Source: an uncultured Pirellulales bacterium (GTDB lineage Bacteria; Planctomycetota; Phycisphaerae; Sedimentisphaerales; Anaerobacaceae). Taken from it: a DNA stretch of 64,000 nucleotides. The notes below the pieces were generated by a model, which saw only the letters and a program-made list of their open reading frames with translations, did no database searches and was not told the origin of the DNA. Positions within the stretch are counted from its first letter, which is position 1, and every line of letters starts with the position of its first letter. Positions 1,431 to 60,957 of the stretch are shown here, piece by piece. The DNA lies in NCBI GenBank assembly GCA_964568985.1, contig CAZMSP010000001.1, positions 11,179 through 75,178 of the forward strand. Reading direction: 5' to 3'. Both the position numbers and the translations under genes were made by a program.

Positions 1431-1500
1431 CACGGATTTCACAGATTTCACGGATTTTAGTCTTTGACTTTCTATTTTATCTGTGTAATCCGTGTAATCC
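1431..1500. repeat. inverted short-word array (GGATTTCAC / GTGTAATCC words)
   Basis: cacggatttcacagatttcacggatttt ... atctgtgtaatccgtgtaatcc. The two arms are approximate reverse complements. A related word occurs at 38150-38175. Confidence 0.7.
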
Positions 1501-1656
1501 TTCGACTACGCTCAGGACAGCGTCTGTGGTTAATTTTCCTTGATTTTCATACAGCATAGAATGAGGAACTCTTTGTAATAATTAGTGTTAAGTGATAAAA
1601 TTTCGACGTTGTAGAGCTCCTGCTTTCGCAGGGGCAAGCTTCAAAAAGGCTGTTTT

Positions 1657-2988
1657 ATGAATACAAATTTCGGCGATGATGCCAAAACAAAAGCTGCTTT
1701 GACCGGCAGAGAGCGAGTGCTGCGGGCGCTTGAATACAAAGAAGTGGACTGTGTTGCCCTGGATTTTGGAGGCACATTCGGCACAGGAGCCCACGTTAGT
1801 TTCATAGCGAAGTTGCGCCAAGTGCTTGGTATGCATAAAAAAGATGAGCCGGTAAAAATCATCGAGCCATATCAAATGCTCGGCGAAGTAGCTTCTGACC
1901 TGCAGGAAGTGCTCGGCATCGATATTGTTAATCTGCCCCGGCCTAAAAGCATTTTTGGCTTTAAGAATTCCGATTTTAAGCCATGGCGAACATTCGACGG
2001 AACAGATGTGCTGGTGCCGGGCAAGTTCAACACTGAGCCGGAACCGAATGGCGATATTTTGCAGTATCCGGAAGGAGACAAGTCGGCACCTGCTTCGGCG
2101 CGGATGCCCAAAGACGGATGCTATTTTGAGTTGATTATCCGACAGAAGCCGGTTGATGAGGCCAAGCTTAATCCGGCTGATAATCTTGAGGAGTTTTCTT
2201 TTATTAGCGATGAAGATTTGAAAATCTATGAGCAGCAGGCAAACGAACTTTATCAAAACACCGACCTTGCGATAGTAGCAGGATTTCCGGGCACGGCCTT
2301 TGGGGATATTACATTAGTTCCGGCACCGGCTTTGAGGCGTCCAAAAGGAATTCGTGACATTGAAGAATGGTACATCAGCACGGTTACACGGAAAGAATAT
2401 ATTAAAGAGGTCTTTGCGGGCCAGGCAGAAATCGCGATTAAAAATCTCGAAAGGATTTATGATGCGGTGGGCAATAAAGTACATGTTGTCCTGCTGGATA
2501 CTACAGACCTGGCGGCGCAGGATACGCTATTTTGCAGTCCTCAGGGTTATCGCGAACTTTATCTGCCGTTCAGCAAGAAACTCAACGACTGGATTCACTC
2601 TCATACCGAATGGAAAGCGATGAAACATTGCTGCGGCTGCTGCGAGCCATTGATAGAGTGCTTTATAGAAGCCGGTTTCGATATTTTAAGTCCTGTGCAA
2701 ACCTCCGCCAAAGGTATGGACCCGAAACATCTAATTGATAAATACGGCGGCAGAATCGTCTTCTGGGGAGGCGTGGATGCACAAAAGGCTCTGCAATTCG
2801 GAAAGCCTGACGAAGTACGCCGGCAGGTTGCTGAACAGCTGCGAATATTCAATCCTTTGACGGTAAGCTCAGGACAGTCGAACCGAAAAACCAATGGATT
2901 TGTTTTCGGTACGGTTCATAATATCCAGTGCAATACGCCGGTTGAAAATGTACTGACAGTGTTTGAGGCACTTGGACGAAGGCTATAA
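1657..2988 (+). CDS. uroporphyrinogen decarboxylase (URO-D) family protein
   Basis: 443-aa ORF with overall URO-D/MtaA-like sequence character (GFPGTAFG, GGRIVFWGGVD, FGTVHNIQ). Specific activity is not inferable. Confidence 0.6.
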   Translation: MNTNFGDDAKTKAALTGRERVLRALEYKEVDCVALDFGGTFGTGAHVSFIAKLRQVLGMHKKDEPVKIIEPYQMLGEVASDLQEVLGIDIVNLPRPKSIFGFKNSDFKPWRTFDGTDVLVPGKFNTEPEPNGDILQYPEGDKSAPASARMPKDGCYFELIIRQKPVDEAKLNPADNLEEFSFISDEDLKIYEQQANELYQNTDLAIVAGFPGTAFGDITLVPAPALRRPKGIRDIEEWYISTVTRKEYIKEVFAGQAEIAIKNLERIYDAVGNKVHVVLLDTTDLAAQDTLFCSPQGYRELYLPFSKKLNDWIHSHTEWKAMKHCCGCCEPLIECFIEAGFDILSPVQTSAKGMDPKHLIDKYGGRIVFWGGVDAQKALQFGKPDEVRRQVAEQLRIFNPLTVSSGQSNRKTNGFVFGTVHNIQCNTPVENVLTVFEALGRRL

Positions 2989-3018
2989 GGGACAAAACTG
3001 TGAAGACCGGAGTTTAAG

Positions 3019-3438
3019 ATGGATTTTCCCAAACGAGCAATTATCCAAAGTCATACGATAACCATTGTGCCACGATATGCAGAAACCGACAAGGCCGGCG
3101 TGGTGCATCATAGTGTCTATCCGGTGTGGTTCGAGATGGGTAGAACCGAGCTGCTGCGGGCCAACGGCTTAGCATACAAAGACCTCGAAGAAACAGGTGT
3201 ATTCTTTGTTGTGGCTGAATTAAATATAAAGTATCGTAGAGCTGCCTTCTACGATGAAAAGCTGCTGTTGCATACGAGCTGTACAGGCGTAACTGCCAGC
3301 AGGGTTGAGCACAGCTATGAACTCACCCGCGAAGATAACGGACTGGTCTTAGCCGAAGGCACAAGTATCCTTGCCTGCGTGGATTCCGATGGAAAGGTCC
3401 GACGAATACCTGAATTTATGTATCCTCAAGAAGATTAG
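3019..3438 (+). CDS. 4HBT/YbgC-type acyl-CoA thioesterase
   Basis: 139 aa. Hotdog-fold N-terminal signature VPRYAETDKAGVVHHSVYPVWFEMGRTELLR. Confidence 0.8.
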   Translation: MDFPKRAIIQSHTITIVPRYAETDKAGVVHHSVYPVWFEMGRTELLRANGLAYKDLEETGVFFVVAELNIKYRRAAFYDEKLLLHTSCTGVTASRVEHSYELTREDNGLVLAEGTSILACVDSDGKVRRIPEFMYPQED

Positions 3439-3456
3439 TCCCACCAAGAGTTTAAT

Positions 3457-4212: not shown

Positions 4213-4289
4213 AAGGTTCTTTTTTGAACGCAACATTATCTGATACTATGCTGGATTCCGCCTCTGGCGGATAAACCTCGATAGAACTG

Positions 4290-5525
4290 TCAGTGTGCTG
4301 GTCCGCTGGTTAGCGCGAATATATAAGCTGAGCCGGAGTTCTTTCCCTTGTCATCATCAAATATCGCCCCCACGATTGTCTTATCGCCGTTTATGAAAAC
4401 AGACCTGCCAAACCAGTCTTTGGCAGCACCATCTAAGGCGGTGAGCTTTTGCTGCTGAACCCAGTTCGTGCCGTCCCACCTGAATATATAAGCCGAGCCG
4501 GAGTCATTTCCTTTGTCATTGTCGCCCCACGCCCCCACAATTGCCAAATCGCCGCTGATAGAAACAGAGAAGCCAAAGTGGTCGCTCTCAGCACCATCTA
4601 TGGCCAACAGTTTTGCCTGCTGGACCCAGCCAGTGTCATCCCATCTGAATATGTAAGCCGAGCCGGAGTTAGTTCCCAAATCGTCATCCCAATACGCCCC
4701 CACGATTATCTTATCGCTGCATATAGAGACAGAAATGCCAAACGAGTCTCCGAGGACACTATCTGCGGCGGTAATCTTTTGTTGCCGTACCCAGCGAGTG
4801 CCATACAACAACCTGTATATATAAGCTGAGCCAGACTCAGCTCCCCCATCGTCATCGCCATGAGCCCCCACAATTATCTTATCTCCGCTTATAGAGACAG
4901 ATTTGCCAAACCCGTCACCAGGTTCCCCATCGGCAGCGGTGAGCTTTTGCTGCTGGCTCCAGTTAGTACCATCCCGCTTGAATATATAAGCCGAGCCTCT
5001 GTTGTCGTCGCAAAACGCCCCCACGACGGCATAACCGCCGCTTATAGAAACGATACCAAAGCAGTCGCCGAGAACGCCATCCGAGGCGATGAGCTTTGCC
5101 TGTTGAACCCAGTTGGTGCCATTCCGCCGGAATATATAAGCCGCGCCGCTGTTATTAAAATTGCCATCGCCATGACGTGCCCCCACAATGGCATAATCGC
5201 CGCTTATAGAAACAGAATTGCCAAACCAATGGCCATCATTAGCATCTGCGGCAGTGAGCTTTTGCTGCTGAATCCAGCCAGTGCCATCCCACCTGAATAT
5301 ATAAGCCGCGCCGGAGTCGACCCCCTTGTCATTATCGTTAGCTGCCCCCATGATGGCATAATCGCCACTTATAGAAACAGAGATACCAAAATGATCATTG
5401 ACCTGCCCGTCTGTGGCGGTGAGCTTGGCCTTTTGCAGCCAGGCGGTATCAGCCCTTGCCGACTCCAAAAGCACAAGAGAGCACAAAATCACTACTCCGC
5501 TAAGGAGATGGCGGATAGGTATCAT
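4290..5525 (-). CDS. secreted FG-GAP-like beta-propeller repeat protein
   Basis: At least 7 tandem ~50-aa repeats (FGxSVSISGDYAIVGA..DD..G..SGSAYIFRWDGTxWxQQQKLTAxDG). Signal peptide MIPIRHLLSGVVILCSLVLLESARA from ATG 5525. The ORF is open upstream to 5588. Confidence 0.8.
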   Translation of the reverse strand: MIPIRHLLSGVVILCSLVLLESARADTAWLQKAKLTATDGQVNDHFGISVSISGDYAIMGAANDNDKGVDSGAAYIFRWDGTGWIQQQKLTAADANDGHWFGNSVSISGDYAIVGARHGDGNFNNSGAAYIFRRNGTNWVQQAKLIASDGVLGDCFGIVSISGGYAVVGAFCDDNRGSAYIFKRDGTNWSQQQKLTAADGEPGDGFGKSVSISGDKIIVGAHGDDDGGAESGSAYIYRLLYGTRWVRQQKITAADSVLGDSFGISVSICSDKIIVGAYWDDDLGTNSGSAYIFRWDDTGWVQQAKLLAIDGAESDHFGFSVSISGDLAIVGAWGDNDKGNDSGSAYIFRWDGTNWVQQQKLTALDGAAKDWFGRSVFINGDKTIVGAIFDDDKGKNSGSAYIFALTSGPAH

Positions 5526-5810
5526 ACACAACCATATTTTCTTTCTCTCGCCATTCAACACAACTAAACTCCCTTTCATCTTCACCAAGCTATTGTTTAA
5601 TTATTATACCACAAAAAGCCTAAAGAATTCAAGTAAAAAAGATGCTTGACTGGCAATAATAGATGCTGGATACTGAATACTCGATGCTTGATGTTATGTT
5701 TAGTCCGGTAAAAAAGGGAGAAACATCTGGATATCGAAGGGAAATTTAGCTTGTTAGGTTAGATTATTCGCTCAGCTCAGGATGACAAGCATCGAGAAGC
5801 GAGAAACGAG

Positions 5811-7238
5811 ATGAAAGAAAGTTGTGGTCTTTTCGGTATATTTGGCGACCCGGAAGCTGTTGAAAAGACTTACTTCGGCTTACATAGTCTGCAACACCGC
5901 GGGCAGGAATCAGCAGGAATCGCCACCAGCGACGGTGAATTTATCCAGTGCTATACAGGTATGGGCACGGTAAGCAGGGTCTTCCGCAGCGGCTCAAACA
6001 TCCTTCAGAAGCTGCGTAATCCGATAGCGATCGGTCATGTGCGGTATTCGACAACCGGTGCCAGTAAAGCGGTGAACAGTCAGCCGCTCTTAGCAGAATA
6101 CTCCCGCGGGCAGGTTGCAGTAGCACATAACGGCAACCTTATAAATGCTGCGCTTATGCGTGACGAATACGAGGCCTATGGCAGCATATTCAAATCGACA
6201 TGCGATACGGAAGTTATTATTCACCTGCTTGCCAAGCCGACACACACCAATGATCCCGACCCAGTGGCGCATCTATTGAACCATCTGCAGGGGGCATATT
6301 GTCTTTTGTTTTTGTTTGACGACCACATTGAGGCGGCCCGCGACCCTTACGGTTTCAGGCCTTTGTGCATTGGCCAAACAGAAAACGGCAGCTATGTTTT
6401 CGCCAGCGAGAACTGCGCCTTCGACATTATAAACGTAAAGTTCATTCGTGAGGTTGAACCTGGCGAAATCATTCGGCTGGATGAGAAGGGTCTATCCAGC
6501 AGATTTTTTGTTCAGCCGGGTACTGTTACGCCGGCCCATTGCATCTTCGAGCACATCTATTTCGCCAAGCAAAATAGCACAATCTTCGGCGAAAACGTGC
6601 ATGAGTTTAGAAAAAAGCTTGGCAGACAACTGGCAATAGAACATCCTGTTGATGCAGATGTCGTAATACCCGTTCCGGACTCAGGTACCTCAGCGGCAAT
6701 CGGCTACGCAGAGCAGAGCAAAATACCATTCGATATGGGAATGGTTAGAAGCCATTACATAGGCAGAACATTTATCTCGCCGGACCAGAAATTAAGAGAG
6801 TTGCAGGTCAAACTCAAACTGGCAATGGTAAAAGAGGTCGTCGTCGGAAAACGCGTTGTAGTTGTAGATGATTCCATAGTTCGCGGCACAACTACCAGAG
6901 GCAAGATCAGAACGTTACGCCAGGCAGGCGCAAAAGAAATCCATATGCGGGTGAGCTGTCCGCCGCTGCGGTTTCCCTGCTTTTATGGCGTGGATTTTCC
7001 CACTAAAGAAGAACTGCTGGCGAATAATCGCAATCTGGAGCAAATCAGAGATTTTCTTGAGGTCGATAGTGTGGGCTACCTGTCACTTGAAGGAATGCTA
7101 TCCTGCGCAACGCTTGCGAAAGATCACTATTGCACTGCCTGCTGGACAGGTAAATACCCTGTCCAGCCTGATTGCACAGTCAATAAGTTTGCTATGGAAA
7201 GATACCAGATGCAGATGTTTGACGAAACCGATACTTGA
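5811..7238 (+). CDS. purF: amidophosphoribosyltransferase
   Basis: N-terminal CGLFGIFG Ntn-amidotransferase motif. PRTase motif VVVVDDSIVRGTT. C-terminal Cys ligands. 475 aa. Confidence 0.95.
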   Translation: MKESCGLFGIFGDPEAVEKTYFGLHSLQHRGQESAGIATSDGEFIQCYTGMGTVSRVFRSGSNILQKLRNPIAIGHVRYSTTGASKAVNSQPLLAEYSRGQVAVAHNGNLINAALMRDEYEAYGSIFKSTCDTEVIIHLLAKPTHTNDPDPVAHLLNHLQGAYCLLFLFDDHIEAARDPYGFRPLCIGQTENGSYVFASENCAFDIINVKFIREVEPGEIIRLDEKGLSSRFFVQPGTVTPAHCIFEHIYFAKQNSTIFGENVHEFRKKLGRQLAIEHPVDADVVIPVPDSGTSAAIGYAEQSKIPFDMGMVRSHYIGRTFISPDQKLRELQVKLKLAMVKEVVVGKRVVVVDDSIVRGTTTRGKIRTLRQAGAKEIHMRVSCPPLRFPCFYGVDFPTKEELLANNRNLEQIRDFLEVDSVGYLSLEGMLSCATLAKDHYCTACWTGKYPVQPDCTVNKFAMERYQMQMFDETDT

Positions 7239-10373: not shown

Positions 10374-11288
10374 ATGCACAGAGAAAAAATCACCCGTCGT
10401 GAATTTATCAAAGGCGCATCCGCCCTTGCAGGTGCGGCCTTTATATCCTGCTCACCCCTGAAATCCGCCGGACAAAATCCAAAGCTAACTGCTGTGGATC
10501 AGGTAACTTTAGGCAAGACGGGCCTGAAGCTGAGCCGGCTGGGAATCGGCACGGGTACCAGAGGCGGCAGTATCCAGCGAAATCTCGGCCACGAAGGATT
10601 CAACCGCCTTATACGATACGCCTACGATAAGGGAATTACATATATCGACGCCGCTGACTCATACAGGACCCACGAATGGATCCGCGAGGCAATTAAGGGA
10701 CTGCCGAGAGAAAAACTTTTTATCCAGTCGAAGATAGGTGGAAATCCCAAAGACCCGCTTGAAGTGCTGGAGCACTTTCGAGCGGAGTTGAACACCGATT
10801 ACATCGACAGTGTCCTTGTGCATTGCACTACCAACAGGAACTGGGACAAGGGGCGTAAACGAGTAACCGATGCGCTCGAACAGGCAAAGGATAAGAAAAT
10901 CATACTCGCACACGGTGTTTCCTGCCATAGTGTGCCGGCCTTATCTCTTGCCGCTCAGTTGGATTGGGTGGACGTGAACTTGGTGCGGATAAATCCACAG
11001 GGCGTGAAAATTGATACACCCTCGGAGGGATGGAATGCCCACAGCGATAACTCTGATGTCCCTGCGGTGATGGAGCAGATCAAGATTATGCGCAAAAATA
11101 ATCACGGCATCATCGGAATGAAAATTATGGGAGAGGGGGACTTCACTGGCCCAGAACAACGCGAAAAATCCATCCGCTTTGCGATGCAGCCCGGCCTGCT
11201 CGATGCAGTAGTAATCGGCTTTAAGAACACTGAGGAAATCGACGAGGCCATCGAACGAATCAACCGTGCCCTGTTAGAAACCACATAA
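10374..11288 (+). CDS. Tat-exported aldo/keto reductase
   Basis: Twin-arginine-like leader TRREFIKGASALAGAAF. AKR motifs LGIGTG, GITYIDAADSY and KIGG. Confidence 0.8.
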   Translation: MHREKITRREFIKGASALAGAAFISCSPLKSAGQNPKLTAVDQVTLGKTGLKLSRLGIGTGTRGGSIQRNLGHEGFNRLIRYAYDKGITYIDAADSYRTHEWIREAIKGLPREKLFIQSKIGGNPKDPLEVLEHFRAELNTDYIDSVLVHCTTNRNWDKGRKRVTDALEQAKDKKIILAHGVSCHSVPALSLAAQLDWVDVNLVRINPQGVKIDTPSEGWNAHSDNSDVPAVMEQIKIMRKNNHGIIGMKIMGEGDFTGPEQREKSIRFAMQPGLLDAVVIGFKNTEEIDEAIERINRALLETT

Positions 11289-13550: not shown

Positions 13551-14486
13551 TCAGGCAACATAACTGCGTCCGGCTACTCCCTTATTATCTGGATTATACA
13601 AACAGCTATAATAAGAATATTCGTGTGTTTCACTTGTATTTCTATCCGGATAAATCTGCTGCGCCATTTCTTCTTTGTGAGTTGAAACGCCTATAGCCTT
13701 GCCAATTCGTCTTATCAACGATTCCCTAAACCTATCTTGCAGAATCAGTATCACTCCATTACGGCTACAAAATTCCTCTATACTTAACAATCCGCTAATT
13801 AAATTATTGAATCCATTATCTTCATTCAACGGTATTACAACATAAGAGAAGGTTATTATGTCAAATGCGCCAATATTATTTTTAATACGTTGAAGTTGGC
13901 GCATATTGTCAGGAAAAGCATTATTAATACTCATTGTTTGACCGTTAACAATCCTGCCTTGATGCGCATTTTTAATTTTGAAATAGTGTGATAACATATG
14001 TCTACCTGTTCCAAGGCATATCGTTGCTGTATCATTGAGCACATATGTTATTTTGAGTGAGCGGTGCTTTGGATATTTCCCAATATGTACAAGGTAGTCG
14101 ATAATACAAGAAAGTAACTCTGTAATCGCCAAAGAGGCAACTGCTGGCCCCGAACCTATGTCAAGAATTTGAATGCTACCGGAACTAACGATGTCAAGAA
14201 AATCCAAAGAGACTATATAGTTAATTAAACTATTCTGAATCTGCAAAAAGTGCCGAGCAAAGAAAACATCTAAAAATGCTCGCATGCTTGAGGGTGTAGT
14301 TGGATAACGCGTCTCGTCTTCAGAGACTTTCCTTTGTGGTAATTGTAATATCTGCCGTTTCAGCACCGATTTCACAACATCGGTTAATTGCCATACTCCG
14401 TCAGGACATAGCTCTTCTATAATTAGATTTTTCAGTGTTTCATTCATAAGTAATAAAAAATCAAAATATTTCGTGTTCCGTGTCAT
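13551..14486 (-). CDS. class I SAM-methyltransferase-fold protein (substrate unknown)
   Basis: Motif I ILDIGSGPAVASLAI. Visibly AT-rich and rich in I/N/K. An alternative start at ATG 14447 avoids overlap with the upstream gene. Confidence 0.5.
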   Translation of the reverse strand: MTRNTKYFDFLLLMNETLKNLIIEELCPDGVWQLTDVVKSVLKRQILQLPQRKVSEDETRYPTTPSSMRAFLDVFFARHFLQIQNSLINYIVSLDFLDIVSSGSIQILDIGSGPAVASLAITELLSCIIDYLVHIGKYPKHRSLKITYVLNDTATICLGTGRHMLSHYFKIKNAHQGRIVNGQTMSINNAFPDNMRQLQRIKNNIGAFDIITFSYVVIPLNEDNGFNNLISGLLSIEEFCSRNGVILILQDRFRESLIRRIGKAIGVSTHKEEMAQQIYPDRNTSETHEYSYYSCLYNPDNKGVAGRSYVA

Positions 14487-45387: not shown

Positions 45388-45482
45388 TACTTGATTCTCC
45401 GCCGATAGGCATCCTGTGGAGATACTCGGCGAGCATCGAGGTTTATCCGCCGCAGGCGGAATCCAGCATTGAGAGACGAGAG
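45384..45482. repeat. intercistronic repeat cassette starting on the mcsA stop codon
   Basis: TGATACTTGATTCTC (45385-45399, identical to 55537-55551), then a TTATCCGCC hairpin, then NATCNAG words ending in gagagacgagagATG. Confidence 0.75.
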
Positions 45483-46689: not shown

Positions 46690-46765
46690 TCTCGCTTTAG
46701 TACCTGATAACCTGATTCCTGATATCCTATGCCTTGATTTCCTAATAACCTGCCTGATACCTAAG
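46690..46765. repeat. CCTGATN heptamer/octamer word array
   Basis: tacctga taacctga ttcctga tatccta tgccttga tttccta ataacctg cctgatacc. Confidence 0.7.
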
Positions 46766-46841: not shown

Positions 46842-47173
46842 GCAAAAAACAATGCTCGATTCCACTCATAGAGATGTGGCCCCGCACCTACTTTTAAGAT
46901 TTAGCTCCCGAATATATATTTCAGTCCAGATTGTAAAAAAACCTTCATTTTACTTTGATTGTGTATTCTCAAAGTAGCTGCGGGGCTGCCAAAATGGCAC
47001 TATTAACAAGAAGATAGAAGACGGAAAACAGAAGTCAGAAGCCATAACTTCCTGAAATAAAAGATGTTAGTTGCTCAAAACAGATTGTGCTTGACTTTTG
47101 GCACGGCTTTTGCGAATAAATAACCACAGATTAAATATAAATAAAATCTCTGTGGCAAAAAAAGGAGATGATT

Positions 47174-49126
47174 ATGGCTAAAATCATTGGCATAGATTTG
47201 GGAACGACAAATTCCGTGGTCGCCGTTATGGAAGGTTCGGCGCCGAAGGTATTGATAAATTCTTCCGGCTCCCGGCTGACGCCTTCGGTGGTCGGCTTCA
47301 CGGACAAGGGCGAGCGGCTCGTCGGACAGATTGCGCGCCATCAGCAGGTAACAAATCCCGAAAACACCGTATTTTCAATCAAGCGTTTTATGGGCAGACG
47401 CCATAGCGAAGTTTCATCGGAAGAAAAAATTGTTCCTTACAAAATTACCGGCGGACCGGAGGAGCTGGTCAAAGTCCGGGTCCGCGGGAAAGAATACACC
47501 CCGCCGGAAATCTCAGCTATGGTCCTGCAGGATTTGAAAAAAACCGCTGAGGATTATCTGGGCGAAAAAGTAACCGATGCCGTTATTACCGTCCCAGCAT
47601 ATTTTAACGACTCCCAGCGACAGGCCACAAAAGACGCAGGCAAAATCGCAGGCCTCAATGTCCGCAGGATTATTAACGAACCGACTGCCGCGGCCCTTGC
47701 CTACGGCGTCGAGAAGAAAAAGGACCAGAAAGTGGCCGTCTTTGACTTCGGCGGCGGCACATTCGATATCTCCATCCTTGATATCGGCGGCTTTGGCGAG
47801 GAAGGCGGTGTTCTTGAAGTCCTCAGCACAAACGGTGACACCCATCTCGGCGGCGATGACCTTGATGCCGTCTTGATAAACCATATCGCCGATGAGTTCA
47901 AACAGAAAGAGGGCATCGACCTGCGCGAAGACCCGATGGCACATCAACGGCTCAAAGAGGCTGCTGAAAAGGCAAAGTGCGAACTGAGCTCGCAGGTCGA
48001 AGCGACCATTAATCTGCCCTTTATCACCGCTGACGCAAAAGGCCCGAAGCACCTGCAGATGACCGTCACCAGAAGCAAGTTCGAATCGCTGGTTGAGCAC
48101 GTTTTTGAACGTCTAAAACAACCGTGCTACAAAGCAATGGAGGATGCAAAGCTGGAACTTAAGGACATCACCGAAGTCCTGCTGGTAGGCGGCTCGACAA
48201 GGACTCCAAAGGTTCAGGAAATAGTCAAAGAAATCTTCGGTAAAGAACCGAACAAGAGCATCAATCCTGATGAGGTAGTTGCATTGGGCGCCGCCATTCA
48301 GGGCGCTGTCCTGGCCGGCGATGCGGGCGTAAAGGATATTCTGCTGCTGGACGTAACGCCTCTTTCCCTTGGTGTCGAGACGCTCGGCGGTGTTATGACA
48401 AAACTGATTGAGCGCAACACAACCATCCCTACCAGCAAGAAGGAGATTTTCTCGACCGCTGCGGACAATCAGACCACCGTTGATATCCATGTGCTTCAGG
48501 GCGAGCGTGAATTTGCGCGGGACAACCGAACGCTCGGCAGATTCCAGCTTGCTGATATTCCGCCGGCCCCGCGAGGTATTCCGCAGATTGAGGTTGCATT
48601 TGACATTGATGCCAACGGCATTTTGAACGTCTCAGCAAAAGACCTCGGCACCGGCAAGCAACAATCAATTGAAATTAAATCCAGTTCAGGCCTCAGTGAC
48701 GATGAGGTTAAAAAGATGACAAAGGACGCTGAGGCACACGCCGCAGATGACAAAAAGAAAAGAGAGGTGGTGGACCTGAAGAACCAGGCCGACCAGCTGA
48801 TTTACTCCACTGAAAAAACTCTCAAAGAGCATGGCGATAAGGTCTCTGGTGAAATCCGGGGAAAAATCGAAAGCGCCACTAACAACCTCAAAAATGCTAT
48901 AAAAGGCGATAACGCCGACGCAATAAAAAAAGCCATCGAAAACCTCGGCACTGCCAGCCAGGAATTGGGTAAGGTTCTCTATGAAGAAGCCGCCAAAAAG
49001 CAGGCCGCTTCAGCAGCTTCGGGCACAGCTGAGCAAAAACCACCTCCGCCACCCGAAGGCGAGGTTAAAAGAAAAGACGGTAACGATGATGTAATCGACG
49101 CTGAATTCGAGGCAAAAGACAAATAA
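47174..49126 (+). CDS. dnaK: molecular chaperone DnaK (Hsp70)
   Basis: [33 protein letters not shown] 7 nt upstream of ATG 47174. An in-frame ATG also occurs at 47168. Confidence 0.97.
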
Positions 49127-49293
49127 CAACTAATGAGTGGTTATTGGTAACTGGTTACAGGATATTAAAAATCAAATATCGAAATGTAAAATTAAGGAAG
49201 TCGTTGCCGCTTTGCGGCAACTCCATAATTTTGATTTTTAATCTTTGATTTTTGCATTCTTTTTACCAGTTACTATTTAACTAATAACTATCT
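49127..49293. repeat. nested palindromic spacer between convergent dnaK and mnmE
   Basis: Outer arms use GGTAAC/GTTACC words and middle arms use AAATCAAA/TTTGATTT words. The core hairpin is at 49203-49221. Confidence 0.75.
49203..49221. terminator. GC core hairpin GTTGCCGC-TTT-GCGGCAAC (candidate bidirectional terminator)
   Basis: 8-bp perfect stem with A/T-rich flanks on both sides, placed between convergent genes. Confidence 0.5.
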
Positions 49294-50745
49294 TTATTTT
49301 CCTATACAGAATTGGCTGAATATCCTGTCCAGAATCTCTTCGTCGATATGCTGCTGCTCGATATCGCTCATCGCCTTGTACGCTGCCCGCAGCATCATTG
49401 CAGTTACCTCATCATTGCTGGCTTTCAACTCAATCATGGCTTCGCTGACGTTTTCAATCGCATCTGTGACGGCCTGTCTGTGCCGGGCCATAAGAGCAAC
49501 CCCCGACGCTTGCTCAGAAAGCCCCTCGCTACCTGTACCAAGTACCAGCTCGATTAATTTCTTATCAATTGTATTTCGCAACTGTTCCACACCAACGCTG
49601 GTTACTGCAGAAGTTGGTAAAAACTTGGCGGCAAATAACTTATTTAACTCGGCAAGTCGATTAGCTAACATCTCCTCTGAGACGAGGTCAGATTTTGTTG
49701 CAACCAGTATCGCCGGTACAGACCCAAGACCACAGACCAAAGACCATAGACTAATCTCATCGGCCCACATTCCAAGCTCTGGAGCATTATATCTTGTGTC
49801 TTGTGTCTTGAGTCTGGGGTCTTTTGAAACATCCACGCAAAATACAACCACAGAGCTGTTGCGCAGCGCCTCGACTGCTGCTTGCTGCGCCAATTCATCA
49901 AGAATATTCTCTGCTGTAGCCAACAATCCTGCACAGTCGAACAGCACACATCTACAATGCGTCAGAGATAGTAGTCCCGTCAGGACATCCCTTGTGGTTT
50001 TGTGCCTGTCTGATATGATACTTCTTTCTTCGCCGAGCAACTTATTCAACAGACTGCTTTTGCCGGCATTGGTTGCTCCTGCTATGCCCACCGCTGGCAA
50101 ATCGATTAATGATTCATTCCTGATGCTGCCAGAAAGCAACTGCTCAAGCTCCATCTTTATCCAGGTAAGTTTTTCAACCGCCTGCGGTCGAGTTATAAAT
50201 TCGATATCTTCGCTGCTGAAATCCAGACCCGCTTCGATTAAGCTGAGACAATCCATCAGCTCTGACTGTATTTTTGCTGTAGCTTCAGCTAATCGCCCGC
50301 TCAGAAGTTTCTCAGCAGCAGCTAATTGAAAGGTATTGGAGCTTACCACGACTTCATTCACTGCCTCCGCCTGTGTTAAATCAATCTTGCCGGCTAGGTA
50401 TGCGCGCGCCGTGAACTCACCGGGCCCTGCCATTCGAAGGCCTTGGCTAAACATCTTGCCCATTAAGGTTTCTACAACAGCAGCGTTAGTATAGGTGTGA
50501 AATTCGGCAACGTCCTCACCGGTATAAGAGCGCGGGCCAAAAGACAGGTACAGTTTCGCTTCAACCTTAAGCTCGTCATCTACCGTTATACTTCCGGTAA
50601 TCAGACCGTTTGTTTTGATAGAGATAGGCGGCCTGAAAATCTGCTGACAGATTTCGACCATCTTAGGGCCGGTTATGCGAATAATCACCCTCTCCTGTGA
50701 ACTCGGAGAGCTAACCGCCACAATAGTATCGCTCAGGTCATACAT
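49294..50745 (-). CDS. mnmE: tRNA modification GTPase MnmE with a repeat-encoded ~36-aa insertion
   Basis: G-domain GATNAGKSSLLN, TTRD and TKSDL. C-terminal FCIGK. Insertion at 49718-49825. Confidence 0.9.
   Translation of the reverse strand: MYDLSDTIVAVSSPSSQERVIIRITGPKMVEICQQIFRPPISIKTNGLITGSITVDDELKVEAKLYLSFGPRSYTGEDVAEFHTYTNAAVVETLMGKMFSQGLRMAGPGEFTARAYLAGKIDLTQAEAVNEVVVSSNTFQLAAAEKLLSGRLAEATAKIQSELMDCLSLIEAGLDFSSEDIEFITRPQAVEKLTWIKMELEQLLSGSIRNESLIDLPAVGIAGATNAGKSSLLNKLLGEERSIISDRHKTTRDVLTGLLSLTHCRCVLFDCAGLLATAENILDELAQQAAVEALRNSSVVVFCVDVSKDPRLKTQDTRYNAPELGMWADEISLWSLVCGLGSVPAILVATKSDLVSEEMLANRLAELNKLFAAKFLPTSAVTSVGVEQLRNTIDKKLIELVLGTGSEGLSEQASGVALMARHRQAVTDAIENVSEAMIELKASNDEVTAMMLRAAYKAMSDIEQQHIDEEILDRIFSQFCIGK
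49718..49825. repeat. inverted heptamer arrays (AGACCNN)x5 ... (GTCTTGN)x5 lying in frame inside mnmE
   Basis: agaccca agaccac agaccaa agaccat agactaa ... atcttgt gtcttgt gtcttga gtctggg gtctttt. 108 nt, equal to 36 codons. Confidence 0.8.
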
Positions 50746-50752
50746 AAGAGAT

Positions 50753-50827
50753 TACAGAAGCCAGAAATCAGAAGCCAGATGTCAGAAGTCAGATTTTTCT
50801 GTCGTCTGTCCTCTGACTTCTGTCCTC
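50753..50827. repeat. inverted heptamer arrays (NCAGAAG)x6 / (TCTGNCN)x4 between yidC and mnmE
   Basis: acagaag ccagaaa tcagaag ccagatg tcagaag tcagatt ttt tctgtcg tctgtcc tctgact tctgtcc. The right arm runs into the yidC stop codon at 50826-50828. Confidence 0.8.
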
Positions 50828-52886
50828 AAATCTTATAGAAGGGTTTGGGCTTTTTCTTTTTGACTTTTCCGCCGGTCTTACTCGTTACGGCAACCAGGCC
50901 TTTCGATTCTGTCTGTTCTTTTTCACGAATGTGTTTGCGAATGACATACTGCTCAAAAACACCAGCAAAGGTACTGGCCATAATATACAGATTCACCCCT
51001 GACGGCGCCTTGTATAACATCAGCGGAAACATCAACGGCAGCATTATCATCATCATTTTCTGCTGCTGAGCCATTTGGGGACTTGCCGATGCTGACGCCT
51101 GCGACGGCATAAGTTTTTGCTGCAGAAAGAAAGCCACGCCCATCATAATAGGCAGCAGGTTCAGCGACTCTATCCTCCAGCCAAGCAGCGGCAGTGTTAT
51201 CGTTGAAAATCTGACCAGGGCGTCGGGCACCGAAAGGTCGGTAATCCAGAACGGCAAAAACGCTGCTCCACGCAAATCAATACTGGCATACACGGCGCTC
51301 CACAACGCAATCCAGATGGGCATCTGCACGAACATCGGTAGAAAGCCAAAAATCGGAGAAGCCCCCTGCTCTTTATAAAGAGCCATTATTTGCTTGTTCA
51401 TTTCGGCCTTGTTATTGGCGAATTTTTTCTTTATTTCCTCGGCCTTCGGACCGAGCTTACCCATCTTGCTCATCGAGACTTGGCTCTTTTTGGTAATCGG
51501 ATGCATAATCAGACGCATCAAAAACACCAGTATGATAATGACCACACCGTAGTTGCCGATTATGCCGTACATCCATTTCATTATTGCTAGTATCCCAAAG
51601 GCCAGTGGGCTTATAATGCTCGCCGGGCAACAACAGGCCATAAAATCTATCGTTTGAACAAAGCCAAGCGTTCGATAGAGATCGTTTTTATCGAAGAGAC
51701 TTTTATCCTTGGGTCCCACATACACATGGAAGTTATATATTTTTGTGCTGTTCGCCTGGTCCGCCGGAGCCAGTTTGCTTGTGGCAATTTTCAAATCCAA
51801 CCCTACCGTTTCATCGCCGCTGTCGGCCTTATCGTCCCCATCGGGATTATAGAACCGACCTGTCCTCTCTGTCACCCAGTCGCAGTACTCTTTGCCCTCA
51901 TCCGGAACGGGCACCACTATGGCCGCAAAATACTTGTTGACCGCAGCGGCCCAGAGAAAGTTGTCCCCACTTTTTATCAACCGCCTGTCATCAGGGGTCT
52001 TTGCCTTGAGTAGTTTTTTCCTGTCAAGTCTTACACTGGTAATCCGGCCCTGCGAATCTCTAAAGCCGGCAACGACCTTCCTCATATCGGCCCTGAAAGC
52101 CTCTCTGCCGAGTCCTAATGGACCGGCCATATTGAATTGATACTTTAGCTCTCTGTCGGCAAGATTTTCAACCGCTACGCTGCAATCCAAAAGATAGCTG
52201 TCAGGGCTGACTTTGTATGTTTTTAATAGTTTCACTACCGGCTTACCGGCTGACGTTTTGATAATCGCTTCGAACCGAGCCGTTTGAGAGCCGTCCTCTG
52301 CCGTTTCTTTGCCGAGACTCCTGAATTGCAAACCCTGTAGCGGCAATTGCAGCTTCTCCTGAACAAACACAAACTCTCTGTTTGCCATCGACAAAACTTC
52401 ATCACCACCGGCCAGCTCCACAGGAGAAAGAATCACCAACGGCTGAGGATTTTTATAATCACGGTCATCAAATCCGCTAAAGGTAGCTCTCTTTATCGCT
52501 GCTCCTTTGGTGCTCAATTCCAACTCGTACATAAACCAGCTCTTTGGGTCGATTGAGCCGAGTTTAACAGTCTCAGCTGAACCTCCATAGGCCTCGAAAG
52601 TTGTAACAGCAGCCATTTCCTGATGGCTTTTGCCTGTCCTGGGTGAACCTGTCCCGAGCGTGGTCGAGGGAGTCGAAGGGCTGCCAGCAGGAGATTCATC
52701 GGCCTGCGGATTTTCGTTAGCCGTTGTTTGCTGCAAAAGAATACAGGGTTTTCCGACACCTTCTTTGTCATTCCCGCGCAACCTGTCCTGAGCAAAGTCG
52801 AAGGAGCGGGAATCTATACCGGATTCAATAACAAGCCACCCGCAGAAAACAATAAATCCAGCTATAAATAAAGTTAAATATCGCAT
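50826..52886 (-). CDS. yidC: membrane protein insertase YidC
   Basis: N-terminal TM, a large periplasmic domain and a C-terminal conserved 5-TM core with a basic tail (KVKKKKPKPFYKI). ATG 52886. The ORF is open to 52919 through a repeat. Confidence 0.85.
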   Translation of the reverse strand: MRYLTLFIAGFIVFCGWLVIESGIDSRSFDFAQDRLRGNDKEGVGKPCILLQQTTANENPQADESPAGSPSTPSTTLGTGSPRTGKSHQEMAAVTTFEAYGGSAETVKLGSIDPKSWFMYELELSTKGAAIKRATFSGFDDRDYKNPQPLVILSPVELAGGDEVLSMANREFVFVQEKLQLPLQGLQFRSLGKETAEDGSQTARFEAIIKTSAGKPVVKLLKTYKVSPDSYLLDCSVAVENLADRELKYQFNMAGPLGLGREAFRADMRKVVAGFRDSQGRITSVRLDRKKLLKAKTPDDRRLIKSGDNFLWAAAVNKYFAAIVVPVPDEGKEYCDWVTERTGRFYNPDGDDKADSGDETVGLDLKIATSKLAPADQANSTKIYNFHVYVGPKDKSLFDKNDLYRTLGFVQTIDFMACCCPASIISPLAFGILAIMKWMYGIIGNYGVVIIILVFLMRLIMHPITKKSQVSMSKMGKLGPKAEEIKKKFANNKAEMNKQIMALYKEQGASPIFGFLPMFVQMPIWIALWSAVYASIDLRGAAFLPFWITDLSVPDALVRFSTITLPLLGWRIESLNLLPIMMGVAFFLQQKLMPSQASASASPQMAQQQKMMMIMLPLMFPLMLYKAPSGVNLYIMASTFAGVFEQYVIRKHIREKEQTESKGLVAVTSKTGGKVKKKKPKPFYKI

Positions 52887-53020
52887 CTTATCTATCGTCC
52901 TTCGTCCCTCATCTCTCATGACTGTCCTCTCGTGTATTGCTTGTCCGCCGTCCCCACTCTTGTCTTCGACAAGAAGACGTCGGGAGCGAAGGTGGAAGCA
53001 TCGAGTCGCGAGAAACGATT

Positions 53021-59089: not shown

Positions 59090-59145
59090 TAATACAGCAC
59101 AAATCAAAATAGGTTTTTCTAAAAATGTACATTGATTGATGAAAC

Positions 59146-59255
59146 CAATCCACAACTTTTCCACAAAACCGATTTGCGATGTGCAAAACCTGTTAACAAC
59201 AAAATTTTTTTGTGCGTAAAATCAATACTGTTAACATCCTCGATTATGTGGAAAA
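59146..59255. promoter_or_regulatory. cluster of DnaA-box-like 9-mers upstream of dnaA (oriC or dnaA autoregulatory region candidate)
   Basis: caatccaca at 59146-59154 (7/9 to TTATCCACA). ttttccaca at 59157-59165 (8/9). tgtggaaaa at 59247-59255 (8/9, inverted). Two weaker 7/9 sites lie between them. CTGTTAACA occurs twice. Confidence 0.5.
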
Positions 59256-59369
59256 GAAACCCGCCAAATTTGTCTTGATAGGACACGGTTAATGTTTGAT
59301 ACTTAACACTTAACGTGTTATCATAAGAGCATAATCAACCTTAGATTTAGGTAAACAGGAGTTGTACCA

Positions 59370-60836
59370 ATGCAGGGTACATTCACGGATGATAAGCTCC
59401 GCTCTGCCGAAAACCAGATAAGCGCTATTAACGAAGCTCTCGCCAGGAATATAGGCCCACAAAAGTTTCGTATCTGGTTTAATAACTCAACCAGGCTTGC
59501 CCTTACCGGCAGCTATCTAAAGGTTGGTGTGCCAAACCTTTTCATTGCAAGCTGGATTGAAAATCACTTTGCAAACGAAATCAGTAAGGCGGTCAAAGAA
59601 GTTACCGGAGCCCATCGAAAGATTACATTCGCTATCGACCCCGAGCTTTCAGGCAGCCAGAGACGGACGCAGCTGGACTCACAGGCACGACGCGCAGCTC
59701 GTTCATCTATCCCCGGTTCTCGACGAGCATCGAGCATCCAGCATAGAGCATCCGGAAAGCTGAAATATAATCTGGATACATTTGTTGTCGGCCGCTCAAA
59801 TGAGCTTGCTTACAATGCTGCAAAAGCAGTTGTAAATGAGCAAAGAAGCCCTTTCAATCCTCTCTTTATTCACGGAGGATATGGCGTCGGCAAAACACAC
59901 CTGCTGCAGGGAATTTGCAAGGCAGTTTCCAAAAAGCGACCTCAGGCCAATTGGCTTTATCTGTCAGCCGAGGATTTCGTTAACCAGTTTGTATTGGCCT
60001 TGAAAATAAAAAAGCTCGAGCACTTTCGACAAAAAATGAGACAAACAGACTTGTTAGCTATCGACGATATCCACTTTTTGGCAAGCAAGCCATCAACGCA
60101 GGAAGAATTTCTGCATACCTTCAACACCATCAATCTTGCAGGCAAACAGGTCGTGCTGGCCTCCGACGCACATCCAAAGATGATAGGGCAACTGTCCGAA
60201 AAGCTAATTAACCGCTTCATCTCTGGCATGGTCGTCAAAATCAATAGCCCTGATTTCCAGACCCGCTGTGAAATCTGCCAGCAATACGCTGCTGCTATGA
60301 TGGGAGCAAACTTTGGCGCAGCCCATAAGAGGCTGGCCCAAAAGCAAATCCCCGAAAATGTAATAAGATATGTTGCCGAAAATCTGCGCTCCAACGTACG
60401 GGAGCTGGAAGGGGCAATGATGAAATTAGTTGCTTATTCGGCTCTGCAAAATGAGAAGGTTAATCTGTCTATGGCCCAGGAGGTTCTGGCTGAACACCTT
60501 GCCAGGACTGACCCCATTGTGCACATATCGGATATCGAATCAGCCGTCGCTACATATTTCGGCTTAACACCGGCCAATATACATTCATCCAAGAAGGATA
60601 GAACCATAGCCCTCGCCCGGCATTTTAGTATGTATCTGACGAGAAAACACACAAAGATGTCGTTCTCTGAGATTGGCAGATTTATGGGCAATAAAAATCA
60701 CGCCACCGTACTTCTGGCCTGCAGAAAGGTTGAAGACTTTATCAACAGAAATGTGGAGCTTCACTGGCTTTCGCCTGTCGGCAATAAAATCGCAAAGGCA
60801 AAAACCATTCTCGCCGAGCTTGAAGCAAGCATATAA
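59370..60836 (+). CDS. dnaA: chromosomal replication initiator DnaA
   Basis: Walker A GGYGVGKTHLL, Walker B DDIHFL and a C-terminal DNA-binding HTH (ALARHFSMYLTRKHT..FSEIGRFMGNKNHATV). The domain II linker carries a heptamer array. Confidence 0.95.
   Translation: MQGTFTDDKLRSAENQISAINEALARNIGPQKFRIWFNNSTRLALTGSYLKVGVPNLFIASWIENHFANEISKAVKEVTGAHRKITFAIDPELSGSQRRTQLDSQARRAARSSIPGSRRASSIQHRASGKLKYNLDTFVVGRSNELAYNAAKAVVNEQRSPFNPLFIHGGYGVGKTHLLQGICKAVSKKRPQANWLYLSAEDFVNQFVLALKIKKLEHFRQKMRQTDLLAIDDIHFLASKPSTQEEFLHTFNTINLAGKQVVLASDAHPKMIGQLSEKLINRFISGMVVKINSPDFQTRCEICQQYAAAMMGANFGAAHKRLAQKQIPENVIRYVAENLRSNVRELEGAMMKLVAYSALQNEKVNLSMAQEVLAEHLARTDPIVHISDIESAVATYFGLTPANIHSSKKDRTIALARHFSMYLTRKHTKMSFSEIGRFMGNKNHATVLLACRKVEDFINRNVELHWLSPVGNKIAKAKTILAELEASI
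59715..59756. repeat. heptamer array (ATNNAGC words) in frame within the dnaA linker
   Basis: ggttctc gacgagc atcgagc atccagc atagagc atccgga. The 15-mer TTCTCGACGAGCATC (59717-59731) is identical to 55547-55561. Confidence 0.8.
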
Positions 60837-60957
60837 ACTTGACGCTCGATGCCGGATGCTCGATACCCTGATGTCCTGCTACCTGATTACCTGATACTCC
60901 AGTCCTCATATATTCCATCGTCCTTCGTCTCTCCTCCATCGTCCCGCCGTCCCCATG
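60837..60957. repeat. concatenated word arrays (GCTCGAT, CCTGATN, CCATCGT/CCTTCGT) filling the dnaA / dinG-like convergent spacer
   Basis: The whole 121-nt spacer is made of three successive 7-nt word families. Confidence 0.75.

Follow-up and report, generated by a model that had tools for sequence, protein, structure and literature searches.

Short tandem arrays, mostly with a unit of seven nucleotides, occupy many gene spacers and some genes around dnaA in an uncultured Pirellulales bacterium. What are these arrays, how did they arise, and what do they do? The stretch analysed here (the window) is 64,000 nucleotides of contig CAZMSP010000001.1 (assembly GCA_964568985.1, positions 11,179 to 75,178 of the forward strand), a bacterial chromosome segment around dnaA. 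Based on MnmE, the closest genomes are metagenome-assembled genomes (MAGs) of Sedimentisphaerales / Planctomycetota, at 62–72% identity. Heptanucleotide arrays are statistically over-represented in many bacteria, and neither their origin nor their function is established. The explanation favoured here, with moderate confidence, is that the arrays are STRR-like short-unit repeats within a mosaic repeat system. They would grow by slippage of whole units, be dispersed, be tolerated where they are harmless, and occasionally provide stem-loops at gene ends.

The 7-nt period stands far above chance. A lag-match scan of the window was run at thresholds of 14/21, 15/21 and 17/21 lag matches, with dinucleotide shuffles as controls. 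Period-7 segments number 29, 22 and 8 at these thresholds, against 1.45, 0.3 and 0.03 in the shuffles. Other periods from 4 to 13 nt never exceed 8 segments at any threshold, and period 14 follows period 7. Arrays lie 20- to 270-fold above the shuffle expectation, and only at period 7 and its multiple 14. Tandem Repeats Finder (TRF), a separate method, returns about 25 period-7 rows in the window. The preliminary description of this DNA had listed a series of degenerate tandem arrays and proposed lag-7 autocorrelation against shuffled controls. Every listed array was found again, and the enrichment is specific to period 7. The syntenic dnaA-yidC-mnmE 50 kb of E. coli K-12 contains no array, and related contigs from NCBI, JGI and ENA contain 1–7 arrays per 10 kb.

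The arrays are also present in an independent assembly. Logan contig L006 (run SRR9707468), a short-read contig, corresponds to window positions 49236–50874 base for base and reproduces two arrays exactly, the mnmE arrays and the yidC-mnmE hairpin. This identity indicates that the arrays are not an assembler artefact. L006 ends at 49236 within a TGATTTT array of the dnaK/mnmE spacer and at 50874, about 45 nt past the yidC/mnmE hairpin; repeats of this kind may break up the assembly of comparable genomes. Noise may account for one or two weak calls, for example the AT-rich 14439–14467, and the least strict threshold is expected to yield about 1.5 false arrays. Nevertheless, the attribution of the arrays as a whole to chance, low-complexity sequence or assembly artefact retains practically no probability, given the enrichment confined to periods 7 and 14, the identity of L006, the recurrence of the same families in contigs from NCBI, JGI, ENA and IMG/VR, and the preservation of the reading frame by coding arrays.

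Several familiar sources of repetition were rejected. Units of 7–10 nt that are contiguous are not CRISPR, whose repeats are 24–48 nt with unique spacers. Codon periodicity fails because 7 is not a multiple of 3. Both exclusions were already made in the preliminary description, as was the exclusion of classical fixed-sequence REP elements, and they hold: the arrays are not a fixed 20–40 nt palindrome. Transposon footprints with 7-bp target duplications were rejected as well, since they leave the inverted arms unexplained.

The units are degenerate. Lag-7 identity within arrays is 0.64, which is lower than in near-perfect repeats. Period 7 is dominant, as first described, but it is not the only unit size: the CCTGAT family has units of 7–8 nt, and the hairpin at 1431–1500 has units of 9 nt. 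In 599 kb of related metagenome DNA, 195 arrays have a 7-nt unit, 109 an 8-nt unit, 95 a 10-nt unit and 50 a 9-nt unit. The bias toward spacers is strong, with an array density outside open reading frames (ORFs) 12.6 times that inside them. The earlier statement that arrays stand at most gene boundaries is too broad, as only 13 of the 40 spacers of at least 20 nt bear one. Their intergenic character is likewise a matter of density and not a rule, because about nine arrays lie in frame wholly within ORFs.

The feature that made the pattern look new was that each locus seemed to use its own word. This is refuted by clustering of shared words. Clustering was applied to 58 arrays of the window and five relatives, each represented by its consensus unit; 190 pairs shared a word, against 34.7 for random words (maximum 53). 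The main families, ATCGAG/ATCCAG, GACGA, AAGAC, CAGAAG, CCTGAT, GGTAAC and AGTTCAT, recur across loci and across related Sedimentisphaerales-like genomes, and those of the window are also found in L001, L004, L007, L008, L009 and L015. The ATCGAG/ATCCAG word (family A, [CT]ATC[GC]AG) is present at no fewer than nine window loci: 5654, 5783, 17003, 26551, 27525–27688, 36211, 36514, 45384, 59717 and 60837. It is represented overall by 63 arrays from 39 sources. Family B (nnGACGA) is located at 34090, 35542, 37428, 52886 and 60909, and CCTGAT(N) at 27365, 35420, 46690 and 60868. GGTAAC is seen at 23920 and 49109–49290, and CAGAAG-like words are seen at 47005, 50744 and part of 37470. The longest exact match between array loci is 20 nt (26561 versus 27667), a length estimated to be within chance for members of a degenerate family.

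Contig L007 is syntenic with the window from dnaA through aspS, and its orthologous spacers hold other word families than the window. At the orthologous yidC-start junctions, L007 and L008 carry family A arrays, not the family B array of the window. Different families at orthologous spacers indicate that the arrays turn over. The comparison with relatives that had been proposed gave a divided result: unit-number differences exist between species, in the left arm of the mnmE hairpin, but not among six strain-level contigs (L009–L014, with identical MnmE, about 0.3% divergence, 9.4 kb), where no array changes in length. Since turnover is seen between species and not between strains, the arrays are not hypermutable switches.

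This result bears on the idea that the arrays are contingency loci, in which a change in unit number shifts the frame or the promoter spacing and leads to phase variation. A single-unit change would indeed shift the frame, as 7 is not a multiple of 3; within the array at 37428–37498 one gene ends and the next begins; and heptanucleotide repeats mediate phase variation in some pathogens. However, degenerate units suppress slippage, and the strain-level contigs show no length polymorphism. The host genes are housekeeping genes (dnaA, mnmE, yidC), not surface genes, and coding copies differ between species in 21-nt steps only. Phase variation is therefore a very improbable explanation.

Some of the words are not confined to this clade. 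GACGAGG arrays are also found in MAGs of Armatimonadetes, Bacteroidetes and Deltaproteobacteria. Near-perfect GACGAGG / ACGAGGG arrays are located at 10103–10237 of L016 (an Armatimonadetes MAG, about 19 units) and at 9798–10093 of L017 (about 42 units), where gene callers annotated them as small hypothetical proteins. These two arrays indicate that the word exists elsewhere as a classical heptamer microsatellite. When the peptide (RDEGRGT)n was used as a query, all matches were small spurious ORFs that overlie GACGAGG arrays of other phyla. Family-A-type arrays are present on 23 viral or proviral IMG/VR contigs (L123–L145) of 36–66% G+C, many of them with several words. L134 has 10 arrays in 5.4 kb and L140 has 11 in 14 kb, and some arrays on the viral contigs are inverted pairs. 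These contigs indicate that multi-word heptamer arrays are not confined to the Sedimentisphaerales-like clade.

The in-frame copies in conserved genes were missed in the preliminary description, as were the mosaics with small GC-rich hairpins. The hosts include the terminase gene, a ParB-like gene (twice), dnaA, ORF 35452–35925 and mnmE (two arrays). Reading frames stay open across the arrays, with domain matches both before and after them. Within the large subunit of the terminase, a family B array (34090–34134, minus strand; sense ACGAGGG ACGAGGG ACGAGAG ACGAGGG) is inserted just before Walker A. ORF 35452–35925 contains the family B array GAGACGA GTGACGA TAGACGA GGGACGA TGGACGA (35542–35589, minus strand). 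The two family A arrays of the ParB-like gene, both on the minus strand, encode VSSIEYRAL (36211–36252) and SGIEHP within the ParB_N domain (36514–36544). In dnaA, the family A array CGAGCAT CGAGCAT CCAGCAT AGAGCAT (59717–59757, plus strand) lies in the domain II linker. In mnmE, AAGACnn x5 and nGGTCTn x5 form inverted arrays (49716–49827, minus strand), which encode PRLKTQDTRY...LWSLVCGLGS around the native residues W-A-D-E-I.

MnmE provides the richest series of such insertions. Among the 120 best homologues (P0001–P0120, all at least 60% identical), the length ranges from 463 to 631 aa over a baseline of 464–465 aa. Up to 166 extra residues are thus carried by a protein of about 465 aa, and at least 10 insertion hot spots are seen. 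The inserted peptides have 7-aa periods and are translations of array words. RDEGRGT corresponds to GGGACGA, DPRPKTQ and LWSLVWSLGS to AAGACnn and its complement, IRNTQYA and MRDAY to TACGCAA, GNWLN to GGTAAC, and SIEHQ and ILDxxxSMLD to ATCGAGC/ATCCAGC. At core position 42, different array families are inserted in different lineages, as expected of independent events at one tolerant site. At position 308, the left arm consists of 1–5 blocks of 7 aa (21 nt) depending on the species, and the right arm is constant at 11 aa. Steps of 21 nt are the only ones that keep the frame.

No insert shifts the frame or contains a stop codon, and translation is therefore most likely. Excision, or translational or ribosomal bypass, of the coding inserts is unlikely for the same reason. 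The AlphaFold2 model of the window MnmE is mediocre (mean pLDDT 66) and was used for local confidence only. In it, the left-arm peptide has a pLDDT below 50, and the right-arm peptide is a confident helix that mostly replaces native helix residues instead of adding to them. Comparison of filled and empty sites revealed no defined ends, terminal inverted repeats or target-site duplications.

Arrays are combined with small GC-rich hairpins. The 21-nt motif TATCCGCCGNAGGNGGAATCC is present in four copies in the window, against 0.01 expected, and always lies between ATCGAG and CCAGCAT. The copies are at 4253–4273, 26291–26311, 27636–27656 and 45444–45464, with looser ones at 21934 and 63071. They have the form TCCGCC-N4-GGCGGA, and the opposite strand reads C(UUCG)G in three of the four. 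The copy at 4253–4273 (minus strand), TATCCGCCnnAGGCGGAATCC, stands alone between convergent genes, flanked by one ATCGAG and one CCAGCAT. The copy at 26291–26311 (plus strand), TATCCGCCGAAGGCGGAATCA, is preceded by GCATCGAG. Metagenomes contain the exact 23-mer TTTATCCGCCGNAGGCGGAATCC in 103 stretches, which represent 89 unique contexts. It is mostly embedded in family A arrays, and it also adjoins ACCAATTA 8-mers, AATCCGTG 9–10-mers, AGTTCAT heptamers and other GC hairpins. Among the 2.9 million viral contigs of IMG/VR, none matches the mini hairpin pattern.

Two longer palindromes are dispersed in a similar way. The palindrome GCCCCGTTAGAAAC-N10-GTTCTCACGGGGC (CCCGTTAGAAAC...) is common to the window, L001 (10140–10175) and L004 (778 and 9431). 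In the window it is located directly after a stop codon (28843–28880, minus strand) and reads GCCCCGTTAGAAAC-AAGACGTCAA-GTTCTCACGGGGC, and in L001 a member of this family is nested in frame within the mnmE array hairpin. Another palindrome, GGGACCCCATTTTGC...GCAAAATGGGGTCCC, is inserted in frame in dnaA (3340–3390) and mnmE (10510–10560) of L007 and in mnmE of L015 (10640–10730). In the L015 copy, the loop itself contains a nested insertion. Small palindromes or arrays account for most indels of 5 aa or more that separate orthologues of the window and L007. By analogy, the mosaic of arrays and GC hairpins resembles BIMEs, and the coding copies resemble Rickettsia palindromic elements.

Many arrays face their own complement and form stem-loops. 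Compact inverted pairs fold more stably than shuffles, with z from -3.2 to -6.9. The inverted pair at 1431–1500, in a divergent spacer, consists of 9-nt units (CACGGATTT x3 / ATCCGTGTA x2.4) around a 21-nt loop. Its arms are 94% complementary (minimum free energy, MFE, -23.1; z = -5.7); it is also called by TRF, and its word AATCCGTG is also found in metagenome relatives. A family A pair, CTCGnTT x2 / nATCnAG x4 (16975–17043; MFE -20.4, z = -3.2), stands between two co-directional genes of a prophage-like block. In the same block, hairpins punctuate the portal, scaffold, major head and next genes. AGTTCAT x4 faces GAACnnn x3 in the portal/scaffold spacer (24537–24590, z = -4.4), and this word is also found in metagenome locus L045. 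GGTAAC / GTTACC inverted arrays lie between the scaffold and major head genes (23920–23992, z = -3.5). Directly after the major head stop codon, an array hairpin, GCGATTA GCGTATA GTGTTTA ... / ...TATACGC TGTTCGC, is located at 22675–22751 (MFE -32.8, z = -6.4). The entire yidC-mnmE spacer is occupied by a hairpin of CAGAAGN x5–6 / TCTGnCn x4–5 with a TTTT loop (50744–50829; MFE -28.2, z = -6.9), which is one of the two arrays reproduced in L006.

The most elaborate structure is the nested hairpin between the convergent dnaK and mnmE (49109–49293). Its outer arms are GGTAAC/GTTACC arrays, its inner arms are AAAATCA/TGATTTT, and its core is the stem-loop GTTGCCGC-TTT-GCGGCAAC. The arms are 52 nt long and the MFE is -54.2. 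The T-rich flanks of the GC core stem on both strands are themselves TGATTTT arrays. This core with its T-rich flanks has the makeup of an intrinsic (Rho-independent) terminator, a GC-rich stem next to a U tract. So does the mini hairpin ATCCGCC-TAC-GGTGGAT at 63070–63086, which lies just past the stop of the minus-strand gene 63087–63968 and has a T-run on the 3' side of the plus strand. The IMG/VR contig L018 is colinear with the prophage-like block, with a major head protein 85% identical and no arrays. In place of the array hairpin that follows the major head gene in the window, L018 has a plain GC stem-loop. The placements at 22675–22751 and between dnaK and mnmE suggest use as ordinary gene-end hairpins.

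These observations could be taken to mean that long stem-loops at gene boundaries are what selection maintains, as terminators, protectors of 3' ends or intercistronic processing sites, and that repetitive arms are simply stems tolerant of register. The stability of the compact pairs, the punctuation of the head genes, the replacement of the related phage's GC stem-loop by an array hairpin and the resemblance of the dnaK/mnmE element to a bidirectional terminator all agree with it. The preference for inverted over direct copies in the flanks of array cores, 16 versus 5 in the window, is of the same kind. In a wider sample, however, direct neighbours exceed inverted ones, 123 versus 80. When units are permuted within the arms, 8, 47, 4, 12, 47, 27, 13, 32 and 45 of 60 permutations reach the observed energy. 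Because permuted units fold as well, the variable positions of the two arms are not matched, and co-adaptation of the arms is absent. Folding energies of sense and antisense strands show no consistent bias toward the transcribed strand, as G-U pairing would produce. A simple consensus terminator scan did not pick the array hairpins and gave no enrichment at arrays. At least five arrays, near 36.7, 37.4, 46.7, 52.9 and 60.8 kb, are direct only and barely fold (-3 to -9 kcal/mol), and hairpins are also present within essential coding sequences. The claim of inverted arms thus stands for the compact pairs and not for the arrays in general, and selection for stem-loops is quite unlikely to be the reason for their existence.

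Under the favoured explanation, each array is a set of 3–8 degenerate copies of one of a few clade-wide words, usually of 7 nt and sometimes of 8–10 nt. Its length would change by gain or loss of whole units. The unit differences between orthologues are observed, and slipped-strand replication or template switching is their presumed cause. Words and hairpin modules would be copied to new sites, as the dispersal of the 23-nt mini hairpin and the two palindromes shows for these elements. Copies would survive only where they do little harm, that is, in spacers, or in surface loops and linkers when they are in frame and free of stops. This distribution is observed, and selection would act as the filter. 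Two arrays of one word in opposite orientation would yield a long imperfect stem-loop. At some junctions such a stem-loop lies in the position of a terminator or mRNA stabiliser and probably acts as such, incidentally and not as the reason for the arrays.

Several facts weigh against this explanation. No slippage event was caught among the six strain-level contigs. Slippage alone does not explain the persistence of the same few words across genomes that are 60–70% identical in protein. No transposase, RAYT-like gene or reverse transcriptase was found among the window ORFs searched, which were not all of the ORFs. By eye, the right arm of the mnmE hairpin is conserved in nucleotides above synonymous sites (third-position identity 0.53–0.57 in pairs with the window). 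One large clade has the AAGAC/GGTCT hairpin at MnmE position 308, and so do scattered lineages, among them that of the window, whose nearest neighbours lack it. On a tree of core columns, this patchy distribution is not explained by simple vertical descent, and it suggests recombination or recurrent insertion. Finally, mismatches between units cluster on few positions. The window has 52 invariant positions where a cell-placement simulation gives 43.9 +/- 2.5, and the pooled set has 577 where it gives 502 +/- 9. This concentration is significant but ambiguous: it fits a recognised core, and amplification of 14-nt dimers could also produce it. TRF scores period 14 above period 7 in several arrays.

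A recognised core is what would be expected if the arrays were phased binding sites, in which an RNA- or DNA-binding protein, possibly an oligomer at 7-nt spacing, reads a core of 4–5 nt per family. At gene boundaries, the arrays would control translation, the decay of mRNA or the structure of the nucleoid, and the coding copies would be collateral. Besides the confined mismatches, each unit of families A, B and D has about two near-free positions, with an entropy of 1.5–1.9 bits, close to random, beside the fixed core; the arrays for this entropy test were chosen by their core, which makes it partly circular. The words are conserved across genomes, direct-only arrays exist, and many arrays abut starts (purF, mcsB, yidC, ParB and ORF 36694–37446). 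The TAACTGA repeats of Beggiatoaceae likewise lie at starts, and binding by S1, Csp or CsrA has been proposed for them (PMC4679880). A binding partner is also postulated for the heptamers of Nostoc (bioRxiv 10.1101/2022.06.06.494920). Nevertheless, each of at least eight word families would require a reader of its own, the arrays stand in both orientations relative to transcription, and orthologous junctions bear different words. Seven arrays can be present within one mnmE gene, with many insertion sites and interchangeable families. Together with the alternative source of mismatch concentration in 14-nt dimers, these facts make phased binding sites an unlikely explanation.

It can also be imagined that Sedimentisphaerales-like planctomycetes possess an active generator of modular repeats, with a hairpin-specific HUH/RAYT-type enzyme or a template-switching repair polymerase as candidates. 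It would insert small GC hairpins and arrays of 7–10 nt words at new positions, among them specific loops of essential genes, and a hairpin-bearing allele may spread between lineages in a homing-like manner. The idea derives from the AAGAC/GGTCT hairpin, which recurs at one MnmE position in scattered lineages and is missing from their closest relatives. It is speculative, with a low but not negligible probability. If it is true, the machinery would recognise the conserved 5-nt cores or prime on them. The candidates named in the preliminary description, RNA structure or termination, arrays of binding sites, and slippage or template switching, still cover the hypotheses that are alive.

The slippage-and-dispersal explanation places the arrays beside known repeats. 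Tandem heptanucleotide (STRR) arrays were reportedly described in cyanobacteria by Mazel et al. in 1990. The SDR of Nostoc are said, after Elhai et al. 2008, to be very small mobile palindromic elements, often nested in tandem heptamer arrays or hairpins. REP/BIME are small dispersed GC-rich imperfect palindromes that form mosaics at gene ends and in operon spacers, with a possible role in mRNA 3' protection. The arrays of the window resemble STRR of Calothrix and Nostoc/Anabaena in having 7-nt tandem units, with several words per genome at many loci and words shared among related genera. They are also mostly intergenic, often next to start codons or promoters. STRR1-3 have other words in a cyanobacterial host, whereas the arrays here belong to another phylum, are more degenerate (two free positions) and shorter, often form inverted pairs and are frequently in frame in housekeeping genes. 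The 21–23 nt mini hairpin in family A arrays and the 33-nt palindrome nested in the L001 mnmE hairpin would be similar to SDR as so described; phylum and sequences are different. The mini hairpin is also similar to REP/BIME and to the REPINs of Pseudomonas, being a dispersed fixed palindrome in mosaic with other motifs and after stop codons. In contrast to them, the main module here is a tandem array of 7–10 nt units, not a fixed 20–40 nt palindrome, and it is not strictly extragenic.

The preliminary description knew of no mechanism or function on record for such a pattern. Arrays of this type had nevertheless been described: in Calothrix, in Xanthomonas (PMC4692102), as TAACTGA (PMC4679880) and in Nostoc (bioRxiv 10.1101/2022.06.06.494920). 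As cited in PMC4692102 and PMC4679880, heptanucleotide long simple-sequence repeats (SSRs) are over-represented in prokaryotes, 7 nt being the commonest of 5–11 nt units (Mrazek 2007). The same two papers cite Mrazek, Guo and Shah 2007 for an intergenic bias and for polymerase slippage as the proposed origin, and mention three tandem heptanucleotides of Calothrix. Seven nucleotides is the commonest unit here as well (the 195 arrays mentioned above). The long SSRs, however, are near-perfect and most arrays here are imperfect and short, and Planctomycetes are not highlighted in the survey as those papers quote it. No literature on heptamer or tandem repeats in Planctomycetes / Sedimentisphaerales was found. 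Contingency SSRs are perfect, strain-polymorphic and located in surface or virulence genes, whereas the present arrays are degenerate, lack polymorphism in L009–L014 and lie in housekeeping genes.

GGGAATC arrays of Xanthomonas, some in inverted pairs, and GGGGA(T/C)T arrays of Nostoc were described by Rehm et al. 2015 (PMC4692102). The Xanthomonas repeats are at the same junctions in related species with extensive variation in length and sequence (PMC4692102). Both kinds are intergenic heptamer arrays with some inverted pairs that can form stem-loops, as here. There, each genome has one G-rich word with quadruplex potential and no coding copies are reported, whereas the window has many words that are not G-rich. 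TAACTGA arrays are found in Beggiatoaceae, cyanobacteria and Bacteroidetes, a few nucleotides from start codons and in some ORFs (MacGregor 2015, PMC4679880). They share with the present arrays a heptamer word in distant taxa, proximity to starts, and ORF copies near protein ends with 7-aa periodicity. TAACTGA, however, is one invariant word, and inverted copies of it are nearly absent (one indirect repeat), whereas many degenerate words and frequent inverted pairs are seen here, and the insertions here sit in internal loops of essential proteins. Nostoc has several heptamer words near starts and promoters (bioRxiv 10.1101/2022.06.06.494920). Rickettsia palindromic elements (RPE) are hairpin-forming repeats that enter unrelated housekeeping genes without breaking the frame and are translated as additional peptide (PMC10969869). 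The insertions in MnmE, DnaA, ParB and terminase are similar to RPE and MITE in entering unrelated protein-coding genes in frame. RPE are about 150 bp and conserved over the full length, whereas arrays of 20–110 nt with variable units and palindromes of 35–45 nt are inserted here, and the insert load per gene is higher.

The remaining arrays of the window are as follows. Family A words (CAGCATC/CAGTATC on the minus strand) form an array at 5654–5697 in the divergent spacer upstream of purF. An A-like array, CATCGAG AAGCGAG AAACGAG (5783–5820, plus strand), runs into the ATG (5811) of the amidophosphoribosyltransferase gene. A short family A array at 26551–26585 (plus strand) has an exact 20-nt stretch in common with 27667–27686. 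A CCTGAT array with 8-nt spacing lies at 27365–27403 (plus strand). The composite at 27525–27690 begins with CTCGATT x4 in reverse, followed by three forward family A arrays broken by two GC hairpin modules, TCCGCCGAAGC... and TATCCGCCGAAGGTGGAATCC. A CCTGAT(N)1–2 array extends across the 3' end of ORF 35452–35925 (35420–35490, plus strand). ATTCTNA x5 (36670–36724) is direct only and overlaps both the start of the ParB-like gene and the stop codon of another gene; it folds weakly (-3.1 / -5.7). The family B array GACGATG GACGATG GACGATA GACGATG, followed by TCTGnCT units, is located at 37428–37498 (minus strand, direct only), and includes, at 37446–37452, the TAG stop of the ATPase gene and the ATG of the next gene.

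Another composite, at 45384–45482, contains CTTGATA x2–3, an inner hairpin CGCCGA...TCGGCG and family A units broken by the mini hairpin, and ends at the mcsB start. CCTGATN units of 7–8 nt form a direct-only array at 46690–46765 (plus strand), and an AGAAGNC / CAGAAG-like array is located upstream of dnaK (47005–47049, plus strand). The family B array with the sense GAGGGACGAAGGACGATAG (52886–52925, minus strand, direct only) is at or just upstream of the yidC start. A convergent spacer (60837–60957, plus strand) contains three direct arrays, GCTCGAT x3, CCTGATN x4–5 and CATCGTC/CTTCGTC x4–5, with no inverted partner. Gene ends are created or masked by the arrays at 37446–37452, 52886–52925 and 45384–45482. 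The longest ORFs of yidC and mcsB begin inside arrays and probably extend beyond the true N-termini.

The housekeeping genes around the arrays are aspS (39853–41667, plus), dnaK (47168–49126, plus), mnmE (49294–50745, minus), yidC (50826–52919, minus) and dnaA (59370–60836, plus). In the 280-nt spacer upstream of dnaA, the inverted repeat 59156–59172 / 59240–59256 contains the DnaA-box-like TTTTCCACA and is probably part of oriC; the cumulative GC skew shows no clear turn within the window. The whole window has no match in Rfam at the gathering score, and ARAGORN found no tRNA or tmRNA in it. An exact look-up of the DnaK of the window returned no record. Two longer tandem repeats are present. 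The 165-nt repeat called by TRF (4317–5390, 6.6 copies) corresponds to seven FG-GAP repeats of a secreted-type protein (gene 4290–5588, minus strand) and has no relation to the heptamer arrays. A 54-nt repeat (26908–27080, 3.1 copies, 73% matches) lies inside ORF 26535–27338, which has no family match.

The prophage-like head and packaging block extends over roughly 13.5–38 kb (13500–38200). It contains the major head (22752–23906), scaffold (23990–24523), portal (24579–26312), terminase (32834–34399) and ParB-like (35942–36682) genes. An ATPase gene is also present, and a pfkB kinase (27691–28677) and a methyltransferase-like ORF are interspersed. The host repeat families are present in this block, and its colinear IMG/VR relative L018 is free of arrays. 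The block may be an old resident or domesticated element. L018 lacks arrays and no IMG/VR contig has the mini hairpin, which suggests that the block gained its arrays while resident in the lineage.

The arrays belong to a known class without established function, and have traits of their own: degenerate units, many families, frequent inverted pairing, mosaics of arrays and GC hairpins, and a heavy load of in-frame copies in essential genes. In practice, such arrays inflate and split ORF calls in MAGs of a widespread sediment group, where they lead to contig breaks, false N-termini and small "hypothetical proteins". The lineage is informative material, as many word families in inverted and direct configurations stand side by side in it. 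It offers dozens of independent in-frame insertions in one well-understood essential protein, with empty and filled alleles that can be compared across hundreds of metagenomic relatives. Comparative genomics of this group can address slippage versus dispersal, constraint at the nucleotide versus the protein level, and the sites at which proteins tolerate insertions.

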